DNA of 62,666 nucleotides, counting the filler, from Rhabdomonas costata (lineage: Eukaryota), in NCBI GenBank assembly GCA_019059605.1. It is 39 parts of 39 records of this genome, joined end to end, with 100 filler letters (N's around TTAATTAATTAA, not from the genome) between each part and the next. Parts side by side here need not be neighbours in the genome. Positions count along the whole stretch, not along the records: positions 49,899 to 51,407 come from JAHMHO010014206.1; positions 51,508 to 53,016 come from JAHMHO010014207.1; positions 53,117 to 54,625 come from JAHMHO010014208.1; 36 more parts are not named here. One strand, given 5' to 3'. The translations under genes were made by a program, and so were the position numbers. Below the pieces are notes generated by a model that did not search any database, was not told where the DNA came from, and was given only the letters and a program-made list of their open reading frames with translations. This document shows positions 14,613 to 54,725 of this stretch, piece after piece. Position 1 is the first letter of the stretch, and every line of letters starts with the position of its first letter.

Positions 14613-16000
14613 GTGTCGTCTCTATTCTGGGAACGTTTTGGTTGGACGTCCGCAAGGTGCAGCGGCAGATTCGAGGACAGCAGTTCAGCTTGGTGAAGGG
14701 CATGCTGCCGGCAATTCTGTCCCAGGCAATGCGCACAGGTGGTTTTCACTGCAACTCAGCAAATTTTTTCTGCTCTGTGAAAAATCATGCCATCCGGCAC
14801 AATTGTGACCTTCTCCACTGCCTCAAAAGCAAACCCCTCTGACCTTTCTGCTTTTCTTTGCGGGTGGTAGGGGGTGTACATTTTGTAGAACGTTTTCTAG
14901 AATTTGTGTGTGTCTGCCTCCCCCTCCCCCTCCCCTCCGCAGGAATTACTTACTGCGGATTCGACTCCTTTGGGCTGCATCTGGAGCGCCGGGGTTATAC
15001 GGGCTTGCACTGGGACTTCTTCGCGGCGGCCTCCGGGGCCGTTTTGGGCGAGACGATTGCCTGCCCGTTGGATGTGTGGAAGAACAGCTCAATTAAGAAC
15101 CAGAGCATCCGGACGTTCTCCGTTCCCGGGCACATCCTGCGCACTTCGGGGCCTTTGACATTCTTCAACGGCATCGTCGCAGCAGCCCTGAGGAAGTCGA
15201 TTTCGAACGGAGGTAATGACAATGCAGTACCAAGCCTGACGTGTTCACCTCCACTTCTCTTTCCACGGCCAGGGGTTTTTCCTTCCGATTTTTTTTTTGC
15301 TTGGTTCACATGACCTAACACATCTTCACCTTTGGTTTTGTGCAGCTCCCACCTTTTTTCCCAAGGCCTGCTGTCTCTGGGCCCGTACTCCGTGCACTAC
15401 GCTTCGGTGGCTGTGAAGTCTGTGGTTCCGCCGGAGCACCACGGCAGCGCCGTGGTTAGGACGGCGAGTAAGCTCCTTGGCGGGGGCTTGGCAGGGGGCT
15501 TGATGGAGGTGCTGACCCTTCCGCTGGACAAGACGAAGGTCTTCAGGTTTGACAACTTCTTGGTAGGGTGGAGCAGCTTTGTCAGGAACAGTGCCTTTTA
15601 AGAAGTGGCAAAGTTCCCAACGGCAGGTCAACGGCAGGTACTTGCTAGTTTTAACACCATTAGCAAAACACTGCTCGGGGTGACGCTCATGTCACTCGAG
15701 TCTGAGCGTCGTTGTCCAATACTCGCGAAAATCCCATTCAGGCGAGTACCGGTGAGTGGTTGGGAATTCCGACACATATTCCATTGCTGCCTCATGTCAA
15801 CTTGTCAGCTCGGTGTCTTAAGAAGTTGGTTCGGACCCAAAATTCAGGTCCGATTCCGATTCCGATTCCGATTGTTTTCCAGCTTTCGATGCGCATCGTT
15901 TCGATCGGATGGTTTTATTCGCATGTTCATTTTGTTTTCTGTTTTCCCTCATAGCCAAGCTTTGGTGAACCCCTCCACGGGACGACACTACACCAACACC
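14613..16000 (+). CDS. Mitochondrial carrier family (SLC25) protein; exons 14613-14738, 14943-15212, 15366-15538, possibly 15627-15637, and 15955->16000
   Basis: Three Px[DE]xx[KR]-type signatures (WLDVRKVQRQ, PLDVWK, PLDKTK) preceded by Gly-rich helices; phase-compatible GT-AG joins. Confidence 0.88.
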
Positions 16001-30710: not shown

Positions 30711-31365
30711 GGATCGCCCCCAGGGTAGAAAGAACGATGAAAAGTTTTTGTTCTTTCACTCAGATAAAAAAGATGAGTCATAAAAAAAGAAAATAGAGGC
30801 TCATGACGTTTTTCATTCAAAATTTTGGCGCACCTAAACTTATTGGGCACACCAGAGATAATAGTATTTCTCTCGCAGGGGGCTAGGTCGCCATGCAGCC
30901 CATGGAGCCCCCCCAGCAACCTCCCAGGGTTAGGATGCCTGCTCTCGTTTTTGACAGCCATGTTTACCATTTTTGATTTGGAGGCTTTGTGGATCACATT
31001 AAGGGAGAGTACACCAGCTGTGAGACTATTCAGGGCAAGGTTAGCGTGGTCTTAACGCAGGATTTGATGGTGCCTGGAACAACCTGAAAAACTTCCTCAG
31101 GGCACGTGGGGGATCCTCTGGTGACCATCTGGAAAGCTCTGTGAAGGAGTTTCAGTGGCAACTCCGATCCTTTTCTGGAATGCTTCTGTGCATTAAAGAT
31201 GGCTGTTTTCAATGACGCTATCTCTGTGCTTCTGTGTCCAGCAAGTTTTTTCTACCAAACTGCCAAAAAAATTTTCCACTGCGGTAGGTTGGAGCATCTG
31301 GTTTATCCTTTGTCTCAGCCATTTCTTTTACACTCGTTAAGCGATCTTGGGATAATTTTGAGCAC

Positions 31366-37028: not shown

Positions 37029-37167
37029 TAGCGTTAGCGTTAGCGTTAGCGTTAGCGTTAGCGTTAGCGTTAGCGTTAGCGTTAGCGTTAGCGTTAGCGT
37101 TAGCGTTAGCGTTAGCGTTAGCGTTAGCGTTAGCGTTAGGGATACGGTTAGGGTTAGGGTTAGGGTT
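37029..37167 (+). repeat. Telomere-like array: ~18 x TTAGCG followed by 4 x TTAGGG with one ATACGG interruption
   Basis: Read directly; the array runs off the contig start. Confidence 0.95.
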
Positions 37168-47960: not shown

Positions 47961-49047
47961 GCAAGGCTCCGCTAAATAAGGCTAGGATCAATTTTTGGGA
48001 GAAAGGAAGAGGGGCATTGAAATACTCCGAAGGTAAAAAATGTACGCGCACTGTCATAAACCCTGTTGTGAGCCGCGGGGCCGCCGGTTCATCACATCAC
48101 AGAACGAGAACCTCGGTTTGCCCCTGCAGGTCCCAGGCACTTACAACCCGCGGATGTCAAATAACCAATAAAAAAGCACCCCAACACCCNNNNNNNNNNN
48201 NNNNNNNNNNNNNNNNNNNNNNNNNNNNNNNNNTTAATTAATTAANNNNNNNNNNNNNNNNNNNNNNNNNNNNNNNNNNNNNNNNNNNNGGTTGGGTGTA
48301 GGATCCAAAGGGCCCAGAGGCGTCTTTGAAACAGGGGAAATAGATCACGTGCGGTTGGGTTGGATGCGCTTGGGTATTATTTTTTGGTGGCAGAAAACAC
48401 AGCAGCAGCAGGAGCTGCTGCCACAGCAGAGCCTGCGGCTATGTCTGTTCGGCGCTAAGCGGTAATGCAATACAGTGTGCACCCTTTGCTTGTTGATACA
48501 ACGATAGGACCAAGAAGCGCCACGGCATAGTTTAAAACAGGGGTGGGGGTCCAAATCAGTTCACAGTGAATTAGCAAGCACACATGCACAAACAATATCG
48601 GGGTTGCAAGATTGGCCTGAAGTTACCCAAAATGCCAAAATGGAGAAACAAACATGCAGCTGGCGTTCTCCTGACAACAGTGACCAAAAAGTGCACTTCG
48701 CGCTTGCAAGATAAAAAGCGCACGGATGGAGTATGGGAACCAGCGCCACAAAACCACGGGAACTCGGAGAAACCAAGGGCGTTCCCTGTTCAAGGAGAGC
48801 CAAGCGGAAAGGGACTAAACTGAAGTGTACGCATACATATGTGTGTGGAGCACATCGGGATATTGGATGGTGTGAGGTGGCGGCGCTTAAATTACACAAC
48901 TACAACAGGTCGTTAAACTCACAGTGGTCATCGCTTCGGTTTCGGCCGTGCAAGCAACCCAAAAACGACGAGAAAAGAAAGAAATGGGGGCACTGTGTCC
49001 ATCAATGTCTAAAGGTTCTCACAGTGACACCCACACCCACAGTATAC

Positions 49048-49332
49048 CCAGCGGTCGTCGGGGCTGATCTGCACTGACATCAACATCTCCCGGTGACCCT
49101 CCAGTGTTACCAGCATCCGTCCTGAAAGCCATTCCCACACAATAGCCGTGTTGTCCCCAGACCCTGTCACCAGCCGGGCCCCATCGCTGGTGAACGCCAC
49201 GCTGATCACTTGGCAGGTGTGCCCCTCGAGCTCCGCCAGCGGCTCCGCAATTAAACTCCAGACCCGAGCAGTCCGATCGCGGGAGCCCGTGGCAATGACT
49301 GGGAGGCTGGGTGCGAAGGCCACACCCAAAAT
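49048..49332 (-). CDS. WD40-repeat protein exon
   Basis: IATGSRDRTARVW...LEGHTCQVISVAFTSDGARLVTGSGDNTAIVWE...LEGH. Confidence 0.92.
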
Positions 49333-49898
49333 CTGCAGCGTGTAAATGTGCGGTTGTTCACGTGCTTCCAATTTCCCAATGCACACACATCTCAGCAAAG
49401 GGGAAAGAGGCCAAGTAATCACGAAAACCTCATACCTTCGAACCAAAGTAGGCACAGAGAGCCCCTTGGATCGAGGGGCAGGGGTCCCTCAAGTGGGCCC
49501 TATCTAGCCCATGTGCCACAACCCCACAGCAGTACCATTGTATATAGGGTCATGGGGCCTTAAGGGGTTCCAGGTATACAGGCACCCCAGTCTTCTATAA
49601 TCCAACTGGCCTATAGTCCCAACTAAGGAGCCCACACGCCACACAGGGGTTTTTTGAAGTGGCTCTATATACGCACCCGCCCATTGTACAGCCCACGCTT
49701 ACAACTTCCCGCAATGGGATGAAGACAGTTTACTGTGAAAGTGATGGGCACGTTGGCTTGCTTTGCTTTGCTTTGCTTCTGCTTGCTTCCCACAAAAANN
49801 NNNNNNNNNNNNNNNNNNNNNNNNNNNNNNNNNNNNNNNNNNTTAATTAATTAANNNNNNNNNNNNNNNNNNNNNNNNNNNNNNNNNNNNNNNNNNNN

Positions 49899-50617: not shown

Positions 50618-53274
50618 GTTGTAAGGCCGTAATAAAATGGTTGAGGATCAAAAGTCATCTGTGTGACCGACCACATACGCAAACCACCGTTCAACAGTCA
50701 CCCCCACAAGTTCATGCAGGCCTCCGTATGGAGCGCCTCTCTGGATGCACAGCCCGTTCCTGTAACCTCGAAAATTTGTCGACATGGTCTCGAATTGTTT
50801 GAGTAATCTTGTGGCCCTCTGGATTAGCATGGCCACAAGGCTACTTTTATTACCGAAAAGCGCATCTAGCCAGTTAATGCACTGCGTCCTGCGCAAGTGC
50901 CAAGTGCCGAGAGAAAGAGATGTACACGGACCAACACACAAGGATCTTCAAAACATGAAAACCTACTAATTGAGAGTTGTTGGGAAGCAGGTCCTGCTGT
51001 GAACACTCACCATGCAAAAAGTCTTCTGATGAAAGTCTTCGCAACCCCACAAACTCCAAAGCATGGCAAACCTGAAGGGGTTGACCGTCTGCTTCTCTTG
51101 CTCGTTTCCTTGACACCACCCATAACTTTAGCAGTACCCAACCCCCCCACCTGCACAGGCCCATCTCCCCCAGTGGATAAAGATTCTGTTCTCGATCCTC
51201 TCACCAGAGCATCCCCCATAAGAATTAGCTCAGAATTAGCAGATGTCAAGGGTCCTTCTACCTCCCACCCCGCAGCAGCGTCTTCAACCCCATGCACAGG
51301 TGACCCCAAGGTTGCCGCGTCCCACCGGCCCACAGCACTCTCAAAGCCCCCCTGCTGCCTGGACCATGCAGGCGACAGCGGCTCCAGTTTCACGCCACTG
51401 CTGGACANNNNNNNNNNNNNNNNNNNNNNNNNNNNNNNNNNNNNNNNNNNNTTAATTAATTAANNNNNNNNNNNNNNNNNNNNNNNNNNNNNNNNNNNNN
51501 NNNNNNNTAAAGGCACTTCACTTCCGAAAAATGTTCATTATGCACCAGTGACACACAGATCTTGAGATACACAATGCTATTAGCTACAGTATATACCTCA
51601 TAATTGCAACTTTCAACTCACACTGATGCTCCGAGTTCTGAAGCATTTGCATCAAGCGGGTATTGTTATAAAAACATCGTGGCCACAGAGCATCCACGGC
51701 TGGGAGAAGTTGTGCTCAAGCCACTAGCGCATATAGGCCCAGTTTTGGCTCCTGGAGTTAAGTCAATAAAACTCCGAAGCCCTAGGAGTTGGATGCGTGT
51801 AATCATATCCCTCAGTACATGTCACAGTGCCTCATGGGTGCGCATGAACTTCCTTACTTGTGCATTGGTGGAAAATTATTACGCCACATGAAACCTAGCG
51901 TACCATTGGAAGACGTGAGTGTAAACGGTGCAGGTTGCTTGCCGGCCCTCTTGAGGGAAATTGCCAGGATGGGCCACGTTTCCACACCTCGTAGTCCGGA
52001 GCTGCCAGGAAGACGAAGTGAAAAGCAGCGAAAACATTCTGTTCAACAATGAGGTTGCGCCACGAAAGATGGAAAGCTTTGCTTTGCTTTGCTTTTGTGT
52101 CCCCTGCATCACTTACCACTGTGGTGAGAACAATCCCTGCTTACCCCTTCTTACCACTATTTGCTTTGCGGCATTGTATTGTTTCACTTTTCTTCGCTTT
52201 GCCTTGGACAGTGAGCCTTGGGTGTGGCCCCTTGTGGCACATGTTTGCAGTTCCGTGCACGCTGTATCTTGGCGATGGCCATTGCATTCTACCGCATTTT
52301 CGAACTGAGGTCCAGTATGTTTGATTTCTATCGCGTATTTAGAAACAGACTCGTATTAGTCCCTTTTGAACCCCTTTGTTGAAGCTAATGTTTTTGACAT
52401 TGCATTTAGGGTGCAGTCGACCACAGCTGCCCTTGATCCCTTGAGGGTAAAGCACAGTTCTGCGTTCGCGTGCAAAAAGAATCGTATTTTTAATGCCATA
52501 ATTTGAACACATATTTGAACACACATTTGAACCAAACCGGTCCTGCGAGCAATTATGCAGCAGCACTGCAGAGGTGTCGCTCAGCTTCTCACTTTGCACC
52601 GTGTTGTGAGCAGCCTCTTTTCCGCTCGCTCGCTCGCTCTCTCAATGATCGGGGTCGATATGGCTCTGAGCAAGCCCGCCGCCACGCTTGGCTTCCAGTA
52701 CTGCCTCGTGGAGAAGCCCAAGCAGCAGGGCAGGCAGGCGAAGCTTCTGGCTCGCACCCAGCGGGTAGTGGTACGTCTCGGCCTGCCCGCGCGCCGCGGC
52801 GCACACAATGAGCGAGCGAGAGTGATTCTGGGAGTGCGCAGTCCTTGCTGAGAAAAGGGTGGCAACAGTTGACGCTTAGCAGGGCGCGGGCGCAGGGCAA
52901 TACGTTTTGTAAGATGTTGCGTATTGTATGCAAGCGCGAAGTGTGCACGACGCCATAATAAATTCTCCCATTCACGGTAAAGGCTGCCCATCCAGGTCGT
53001 GTGACCCCCACCCCCCNNNNNNNNNNNNNNNNNNNNNNNNNNNNNNNNNNNNNNNNNNNNTTAATTAATTAANNNNNNNNNNNNNNNNNNNNNNNNNNNN
53101 NNNNNNNNNNNNNNNNGGTGGTGTGTTTTAGAGAGCTCTGTGAAGAAATTCCAGTGGCGGGCAAACCTCCCAGATGACTCTGACCCTTTCTTTTGCTTGT
53201 TGGAGTGCATCAAAGGACAGCTGTTTCCAGTGAGGTTTCACAGTTCTTCTTCTATCCTGTGTGTCGAATAAGTT

Positions 53275-54615
53275 TACCTATGCCATATAATCTAACCAAT
53301 GTTGTAAATGTTTATTTTCCTACAAGTGGATTATATGGTAATGGTATATTTGTTGATGTTATGGCACCAGTAAATACTTGTACCGTTGAAAGCCAATAAC
53401 CATAGATATAATATCCGAAAACATGAACATATTGATATAAAGTGGCTGTATCACTGGAAAATGCGCTCATATAAATATTTGCATTACTTGTGTAATTTGA
53501 AGATCCAAGCAATACTTAATTTTGATCTGTCATAACTAAACTTGTATCATTGAACGTTGATGATGAATTTGAACCATAGAAATAAAATTTGAAAGGGTAC
53601 ATGTCAGACACAACACAAGTCCAGTGTTTGAAAGGGTTTGTTGTAGTAAATGTTGGACCCGTCACATATATTGTACATTTAGACAAACCAATATGTTGAA
53701 CTTAGTTTTATATTCACTCGAAATCATCCTGTAATTTGGGTTGAATAGTTTGTTGTAATTGTTCCTCCAAGTGTTGCACTTGGAAATGATGGGTTAGATG
53801 TTATTTGTGTAGTAGAAATAGCTGTAGCTGTTACTGTATAATTAGTCATCATAGTACTTGAATTTGTCTTATCCACATATGAAGGAATTTTAACATAACC
53901 ATTTTGAGCAACTCCAGAACCTCCCATACCACCACCAAAAGTTCCGTACATTTGTGTTTGAGTTCCTTCTTCATTTGTATTTAAATTTGGTGGTGTGTAT
54001 TTAACCCATTTTGATAAGAACTGTATTTCAATAATTGGCCATCAGATGTTTGTTGAAATTGAACAATCTAATAATGATGAGATATAGACTGGTACAGTTG
54101 AATTTATCCACTTTGAACTCGTTGAATTATATACAAGTACTTGATTATTTGAAGCGCTTGATATATTAAAATCTGATAAATATGAACCGGATGATGTTAT
54201 ATTAGCCCATTTTGTAGTTGTTGAATTGTATACAAGGGCTTGATTATTTGATAATGTACCTAAAGAAGCATCAGTTAGTGATGATATATGTATGGGAGTA
54301 ACATATAATGAAAGTGTTGACCATCCAGTGCCATTATAAATGTAAGATCCATTATTTGTACTTGTAGAATCATTTGTTACAATGCAAACATCACCTTCAT
54401 CTGCTGTCAATGCGTTTCGTTTTGGGCAATAGTGTTAACAGATGTTACATTCGTAATAGACAGACTAGGAATTTGATATGTATTTAATTTTCCGTTTGAA
54501 TCTAATGATGCTAGACCGTTTGCTTGAGCTTTAGAATTTATAAAAGTATCCAAATCTGGTATATCTGATGTTGTTAATGGTCGATTTCTCCATTTATAAC
54601 CTCCAGTCTCATATT
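53275..54615 (-). pseudogene. AT-rich, frameshifted virus-type fibre/adhesin gene (candidate endogenous viral element)
   Basis: Roughly 30% GC by eye, intronless; KAQANGLASLDSNGKL..QIP, LTADEGDVCIV and repeated LxD..I....NNQxLVYNSTxxKWxN; several frameshifts and stops. Confidence 0.75.
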
Positions 54616-54725
54616 ACCCCAACAANNNNNNNNNNNNNNNNNNNNNNNNNNNNNNNNNNNNNNNNNNNNTTAATTAATTAANNNNNNNNNNNNNNNNNNN
54701 NNNNNNNNNNNNNNNNNNNNNNNNN

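Follow-up and report, generated by a model that had tools for sequence, protein, structure and literature searches.

A broken phage-type tail-fibre gene beside host-like DNA on one amplicon of the Rhabdomonas costata assembly: co-amplification or integration?

Introduction

When a virus-like gene lies beside host-like DNA on a single short contig of a protist assembly, does it mark an endogenous viral element? The question is raised by one contig (JAHMHO010014208.1) of the Rhabdomonas costata assembly GCA_019059605.1, which carries a broken fibre-like gene on its minus strand. The contig occupies positions 53117–54625 of the window, the whole stretch of 62,666 bases analysed here, which consists of 39 contigs of 1,507–1,516 bases and is not a single locus; all positions count along this window. 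An initial annotation, made from the sequence alone, read the gene as a decayed relic of an integrated Polinton-like virus, virophage or giant virus. A broken viral-type fibre gene does lie beside DNA of host-like composition, as proposed, but the relatives with readable genomic context are tailed bacteriophages, and the proposed assignment does not stand. We consider it likeliest that phage or prophage DNA was co-amplified with the cell and joined to host DNA by a chimeric amplicon, a scenario that the annotation had itself set against its own reading. For amplified protist assemblies the case is a caution: a gene of viral appearance that adjoins host-like DNA on a 1.5-kb amplicon is no evidence of an endogenous element, and fibre motifs such as these point to bacteriophages, not to protist viruses.

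Results

Gene structure

The fibre-like gene comprises about 430 codons on the minus strand; the contig stops within a repeat unit and truncates the gene at its 5′ side. A single minus-strand gene in pieces had been proposed for this contig, and five pieces can be read (Table 1). The motif quoted in the initial annotation, KAQANGLASLDSNGKL, is present at 54485–54532 within the collar module, which in relatives follows the pattern GxANGxAxLDxxGK ... GD.......YIY.G..W. The repeated NNQxLVYNSxxxKWxN units described there were likewise recovered, as NNQALVYNSTTTKWAN at 54201–54248 and NNQVLVYNSTSSKWIN at 54102–54149; the underlying DNA copies (54097–54152 and 54196–54251) are 79% alike at a spacing of 99 nt, and the tail only of a fourth unit lies at the contig edge. 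The conserved segment opening the distal half is 48–56% identical to homologues P0002, P0046, P0047 and P0048. The last fibre piece aligns to residues 168–221 of P0048 and 460–509 of P0010; homology to relatives stops near 53345, and from there P0048 goes on for ~100 residues and P0010 for ~430.

Relatives and their genomic context

As far as homology of the sequence goes, the collar and repeat modules are of the tail-fibre kind found in tailed phages, and not of a Polinton-like, virophage or giant-virus kind. Among PHROG families, the repeat piece matches phrog_29752 (2.6e-10), phrog_13853 (6.9e-10) and phrog_9627 (1.1e-9), while the collar piece finds weak matches to tail families (phrog_1446, 0.0025; phrog_7389, 0.027). 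Searches of large protein sets returned few relatives, seven of near length and 15 longer. In two T7-like podovirus contigs from IMG/VR, L001 and L002, the collar and first repeat are contiguous and 59% and 56% identical to the target, and the match sits in a fibre-like open reading frame (ORF) of 2,093–2,100 residues. The gene order of L002 is portal (PF12236, 1.9e-73), T7-type scaffold, capsid, the matching 2,093-residue ORF and tail tube A and B, and that of L001 is the same. The gene family is already known, and the broken copy described here is a new addition to it.

We extended the survey of context to 11 loci: ORFs of at least 220 residues were scanned in ten loci (59 ORFs), and L002 was added; the scan set aside L093 (almost identical to L092), three antisense ORFs of L003 that overlap, and the fibre ORF of L001. 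Tailed-phage hallmark genes (terminase, portal, capsid, sheath or tail) were found in 10 of the 11 loci, L094 being the sole exception. The repeat piece is matched by 37 of the 94 loci that were fetched. Of the IMG/VR records containing the repeat module, the five largest (202–357 kb) include four with a terminase and none with a capsid of nucleocytoplasmic large DNA viruses (NCLDV); the capsid search had no positive control and did not cover Polinton-like or virophage hallmarks. Annotated tail-fibre genes of the Pseudomonas jumbo phages Deifobo, Paride and vB_Pa-PAC2 carry repeats 40% identical to those of the contig. Atlas look-alikes of the nearest intact relative fall in PTR (phage tail-repeat), Mtd_N and Phage_fiber_2 clusters of Uroviricota, a weak likeness with scores of 0.87–0.91. 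Pfam searches of the five contig pieces returned no family and no Polinton-like, virophage or giant-virus hallmark, and a blastn search of the contig against phages gave no match.

A sequence search of the PDB found no solved relative, and an AlphaFold2 model of homologue P0048, built from an 11-row alignment, was unusable (mean predicted local distance difference test score 45.6, mostly strands). Family membership suggests a fibre fold, and intact relatives would form a modular receptor-binding fibre consisting of an anchor, a collar, repeats and a distal beta-rich part.

Amplicon nature of the contigs

The contigs of the window are separated by runs of N around the linker TTAATTAATTAA; since these spacers are artificial, any feature spanning one is unreal. 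The contig ends themselves are strongly patterned. A G/T-rich 10-mer occupies the 5′ end of 28 of the 39 contigs and a C/A-rich 10-mer the 3′ end of 29, so that 36 contigs have a primer-like 10-mer on at least one end; primer-like ends in the opposite orientation occur in one contig (5′) and in none (3′), and only 3–4% of internal positions have 10-mers of either kind. This bias indicates that the contigs are bounded by the remains of a degenerate G/T primer. The contigs are amplicons, as produced by whole-genome amplification of the polymerase chain reaction type, which we take to be the chemistry behind the G/T primer ends. Internal G/T runs were considered as markers of concatenated amplicons and rejected: the host is rich in them, and within the fibre gene such runs code for conserved residues.

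The other 38 contigs are nearly devoid of recognisable genes, with Pfam matches in two of 137 ORFs of at least 100 residues. These are a WD40 exon at 49012–49488 on the minus strand (1.7e-23) and a mitochondrial-carrier exon at 14843–15310 on the plus strand (8.8e-5); because of these two exons, we take the source of the other contigs to be a eukaryote.

Composition of the contig

That the fibre-bearing contig is the only AT-rich one in the window is confirmed by its guanine–cytosine (GC) content of 0.335, compared with 0.433–0.569 in the other 38. The composition switch placed at about 53270 by the initial annotation is also genuine: the maximum-likelihood change point is 53266, with GC of 0.47 to its left and 0.32 to its right. 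On the left lies an end piece of 137 bp, which scores +18 to +21 bits in favour of a host model over a model of the AT-rich source; in the same test, host pieces average +21 to +23 bits and the highest-scoring fibre piece reaches −8 to −12. Positions 53131–53158 resemble 31132–31159 of another contig in 24 of 28 bases, a likeness reached by one of 300 dinucleotide shuffles. A second similar stretch follows after a gap of 17 nt, possibly a dispersed host repeat. The end piece has no match in phages (searched as protein) or in plasmids (searched as DNA).

Several features of the junction were examined. A plus-strand frame is open from the contig start to a TAA at 53269–53271, but its 51 codons are not significant. 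Comparison of 53117–53350 with the downstream parts of P0048 and P0010 revealed no homology above shuffles, the best of six tests being equalled by 2 of 200. An imperfect inverted repeat (53267–53292 and 53329–53354, 20 of 26 bases) brackets the stop codon of the fibre gene, the left arm beginning precisely where the GC content changes; the energy of its fold does not surpass that of shuffles (z −1.66, 14 of 200). We found no terminal or target-site repeats, and scans for promoters and terminators stayed at chance level.

A rare AT-rich lineage

The distal half of the gene is far rarer than its collar and repeats. None of the 94 fetched loci contains a relative of it, an alignment of the distal half recovered none from IMG/VR, and a search of 1.84 billion cluster representatives gave seven matches, six of them credible. 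The ‘MYGTFGGG’ distal domain marks a very rare, uncultured fibre lineage. The closest relatives (P0002–P0005, P0010/P0025, P0046–P0052, L088 and L089) are AT-rich, rich in N, S and T, and come without context; a search of IMG/VR with P0013 and P0014 for the context of the AT-rich relatives found nothing. P0025 is encoded on a contig of 19 kb, and P0012 and P0014 on contigs of 21–27 kb. No relative was detected by two low-sensitivity pattern-based scans of 185,579 bacterial and archaeal species, one genome each. The AT-rich lineage is thus missing from IMG/VR, cultured phages and representative prokaryote genomes, the pattern scans being of low sensitivity, and has so far been seen as short, often broken fragments only (P0002–P0005, P0046–P0052, L088).

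Some of the relatives themselves appear damaged. The metagenome contig L088 (1–1176) has a 55%-identical fibre gene that is frameshifted and has an early stop at 635–637. The fibre gene of L088 is followed by a Cys/His-rich basic ORF of 100 residues that is split by an A8 run; P0024, the intact form of this ORF, recurs on short contigs in six members that are nearly the same. Where P0024 has A7, L088 has A8; at least one break in the L088 record is thus a homopolymer discrepancy, and among these relatives data of poor quality can pass for decay. Searches with the L088 neighbour ORF found only its own intact copy P0024 and no Pfam or phage match, and an Rfam scan of L088 and L089 found nothing, with no group I intron recovered behind the early stop of L088. 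P0050, P0051 and P0052 all begin at an identical internal Met. In P0005, from an 807-bp contig, the N-terminal 140 residues are fibre-like, with a collar 79% identical to the target, and the reading switches in the middle of a KGQxxGLASL motif to one that is GC-rich and rich in Ala, Pro and Gly. The case of P0005 suggests that joins of AT-rich fibre sequence to GC-rich DNA recur as artefacts.

The nearest intact relative, L089, has an open-ended ORF of 411 residues with no Shine-Dalgarno sequence before its ATG at 511. Its GC content falls from 0.55 in the first 100 bp to 0.28 by 400 bp. The small domain that closes the upstream ORF of L089 recurs in P0010, both at its start and at its C-terminal end, and in P0025, the longer form, where the first copy has an internal position and the second is again C-terminal.

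Lesions in the reading frame

Measured against intact homologues, the gene has four 1-base indels and two in-frame stops. Each of the four breaks proposed by the initial annotation has a counterpart among them. The break near 54420 is a frameshift in a CAAAAC run at 54420–54421; P0003, P0004, P0014 and P0015 align straight across it, from frame −1 to frame −3. Near 54040 there are two compensating 1-base indels, at ~54047 and 54015–54016, and the ten codons between them read SDGQLLKYSS in frame −1 (54017–54046), where P0048 has SDGQLIKYSS. The break near 53720 combines an in-frame TGA at 53724–53726 with a frameshift at ~53690, the exact position of which follows from weak local similarity, and that near 53517 is an in-frame TAA at 53516–53518. 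Since the SDGQLLKYSS codons read in another frame, the TGA at 54042–54044 is out of frame and gives no sign of recoding. A reading of TGA as Trp was rejected on this ground, and also because all seven conserved Trp codons are TGG and a TAA stands in frame at a Leu position. An intact frame for a full-length fibre is precluded by the indels, the stops, the cut 5′ end and the absence of the distal part.

All four indels are located in runs of 2–4 identical bases (CAAAAC, ACAAACA, TT and TATTGG), a position that fits both slippage mutation and sequencing error. Homopolymer-length errors leave the two stop substitutions unexplained. By rough estimate rather than computation, perhaps one substitution in 12–25 makes a stop in a gene so AT-rich; a pair of stops would then suggest that a few percent of positions have changed, which by a general estimate would exceed the usual error of amplification or consensus sequencing. 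We therefore regard the lesions as probably real. The host exons, taken as a gauge of indel error, contain no frameshift in ~170 codons, too few for calibration.

Table 1. Features of the AT-rich contig, in window coordinates
Feature	Position	Strand	Basis
G/T-only run, remains of degenerate amplification primer	53117..53129	+	contig 5′ end
Host-like end piece, 137 bp, GC 0.48, no recognisable gene	53130..53266	.	change point and composition score
AT-rich stretch downstream of the fibre frame	53267..53311	-	direct reading
Last fibre piece, putative distal beta-rich domain, ending at TAA 53312–53314	53312..53515	-	alignment with P0048 and P0010
In-frame TAA (nonsense)	53516..53518	-	Leu in P0048 (DQNLVLLGSS) and P0010 (DTNLVFLGSG)
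Distal domain, middle part (FYFYGSNSSS region), 1-base frameshift ~53690	53519..53723	-	tblastn, P0048 and P0010
In-frame TGA (nonsense)	53724..53726	-	frame continues FRVNIKLSSTY; P0048 LRVNVDFGTSH, P0010 YRFNFLFNTAY
Conserved ‘MYGTFGGGxGGxG..QN.Y..P.Y.D’ segment opening the distal half	53727..53993	-	homologues
Third repeat unit, out of frame through two indels	53994..54046	-	P0048 match and codon context
Two intact ~33-residue repeat units (LxDxxIxxxxNNQxLVYNSxxxKWxN)	54093..54290	-	DNA copies alike; PHROG matches
Collar module (KAQANGLASLDSNGKL ... GDVCIVTNDS ... YIYNGTGWSTL), split by frameshift 54420–54421	54300..54613	-	homology
C/A-only run, primer complement	54617..54625	+	contig 3′ end

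Discussion

Probable co-amplification and chimeric join

The reading that we favour, and hold to be somewhat more probable than all others together, is that phage or prophage DNA from outside the chromosomes was amplified with the cell and acquired its host-like end through a chimera. The contig would be a single whole-genome-amplification amplicon carrying the distal ~430 codons of a tailed-phage-type tail-fibre (receptor-binding) gene from an uncultured AT-rich lineage. The beta-rich distal part of intact relatives would bind a bacterial surface, and the present copy is unable to yield a full-length fibre protein. The source of the DNA may have been a phage particle or the defective prophage of a prey or symbiont bacterium, taken up by or stuck to the cell. 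Such phage-type DNA would have been amplified together with the DNA of the protist cell, and the 137-bp host-like end would have been joined to it by a template switch during amplification.

Besides the tailed-phage affinity, the primer-like contig ends and the join seen in P0005, further considerations lead us to infer this non-chromosomal origin. Only one of the 39 contigs is AT-rich, which argues that the fibre DNA is foreign to the host. A fibre gene occupies much of a phage genome (6.3 kb in L002), and a piece drawn by chance from such a genome would often be fibre. Finally, Brown et al. (2020, PMC7541821) describe viral DNA, including bacteriophage sequences common to protist lineages, with 35–51% of marine protist single-cell genomes, judge this DNA to be non-infective and not integrated, and argue against integration from the identical sequences common to protist lineages; the base rate favours non-integrated phage DNA.

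Other results weigh against this explanation. Six lesions in 1.3 kb are unexpected for the gene of a working phage; as two of them are substitutions, the template would already have been a pseudogene or badly damaged, and the apparent decay counts somewhat against a plain free phage. The scans of prokaryote genomes lend no support to a prophage source. The closest AT-rich relatives lack context and are absent from IMG/VR, so that for them a phage origin is suggested by the shared N-terminal modules only. Moreover, the same amplicon carries an end piece that looks like true host DNA, an arrangement that integration would also give. The lesions and the junction together shift the odds back towards integration. 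The readings discussed below take most of the remaining probability, except that the free-phage case belongs to the favoured explanation itself.

Possible integration into the protist genome

The junction at 53266 may instead be genuine. Phage-type or prophage DNA would then have entered the nuclear genome of the protist and decayed there, leaving a fragment of one copy of an uncharted AT-rich fibre lineage; we regard this as possible rather than probable. The state of the gene agrees with such a history: four indels and two nonsense codons combined with protein similarity of still 43–59% fit neutral decay of roughly a few percent, and the gene lacks the distal part that P0048 and P0010 have. 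The surroundings agree as well, with host-like composition beginning <50 bp from the gene end and an end piece that resembles another host contig. Several relatives on short contigs, which start at one internal Met or have degenerate motifs (P0050–P0052), look like a family of broken copies, although short broken relatives could equally be poor assemblies, as shown by the single A in the A8 run that distinguishes L088 from P0024. Against integration, the assembly consists of amplicons and a single one of 1.5 kb carries the junction, the composition of the fibre part has not moved towards that of the host (0.32 against 0.52), and target-site and terminal repeats are absent. Phage structural genes, moreover, rarely enter eukaryotic nuclei. 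A true junction would place phage-type structural DNA in the nucleus of a eukaryote, a rare finding; it would imply either phage-to-eukaryote transfer or a new AT-rich virus of eukaryotes with phage-type fibres.

Less likely readings: free phage, native neighbour and eukaryotic virus

Within the co-amplification explanation, a minor part of the probability belongs to the case of an intact free-phage gene in which all lesions are errors of amplification or sequencing and the join is chimeric. Single-molecule templates fix early polymerase errors, the indels all fall in short runs, and the record of one relative shows a comparable homopolymer discrepancy (A8 against A7). The runs, however, are just 2–4 bases long, and if two nonsense substitutions arose independently by error, many more silent errors should accompany them. 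The ~170 host-exon codons free of frameshifts also speak against a high error rate, in a number too small to decide. Taken by itself, we consider this case unlikely.

It is improbable that the contig contains no host DNA at all, the 137 bp being the end of a convergent neighbouring gene native to the AT-rich phage or bacterium. The open plus-strand frame that starts with the contig and stops at the change point would agree with a convergent gene, L089 likewise drifts from GC 0.55 to 0.28 over its first 400 bp, and ~3% of 137-bp windows in L001, L002 and L089 reach a GC of 0.47. No window of the fibre part, L088 or L006 does so, however, and this reading is further opposed by the insignificance of the 51-codon frame, the likeness of the end piece to another host contig and its lack of phage or plasmid matches.

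The relic of an integrated Polinton-like virus, virophage or giant virus is the least probable of all, for although AT-rich genes rich in N, S and T are common in giant viruses, L089 lacks a Shine-Dalgarno sequence and the closest AT-rich clade is absent from IMG/VR and cultured phages, the contig has no hallmark gene, the relatives with context are tailed phages, an NCLDV capsid was found in none of the five large records and the collar and repeat modules are 56–59% identical to those of T7-like phages.

Comparison with known systems

The contig gene shares with the tail fibres of tailed phages (Caudoviricetes) the collar module, the ~30-residue repeats, the modular build and the PHROG families. 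It differs from them in being broken and incomplete, with no tail module visible around it: in L001 and L002 the fibre ORF stands between capsid and tail-tube genes, whereas the contig holds only the fibre gene, and its distal half has no counterpart in the fetched phage loci. The association of phage DNA with single protist cells described by Brown et al. (2020, PMC7541821) is similar in that phage-type sequence appears in an amplified protist assembly; here, by contrast, the gene is broken and shares one contig with host-like DNA. Endogenous giant-virus, Polinton-like and virophage elements also combine an AT-rich, decayed, virus-derived gene with adjacent DNA of host composition, but the contig lacks their hallmark genes and the relatives with context are tailed phages. 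Defective prophage remnants of bacteria resemble it as phage structural genes with frameshifts and stops; unlike them, the contig has no bacterial gene, and the two pattern scans of species-representative prokaryote genomes gave no relative.

Additional features of the window

An Rfam scan of the window and of the AT-rich contig gave no match. After the mitochondrial-carrier exon, a second carrier-like stretch at 15314–15598 lies in a different frame, which suggests introns. One contig, lacking the usual primer-like end, starts with 23 tandem copies of TAGCGT (37029–37167, 96% matches), an array that could be a satellite or a chromosome-end repeat.

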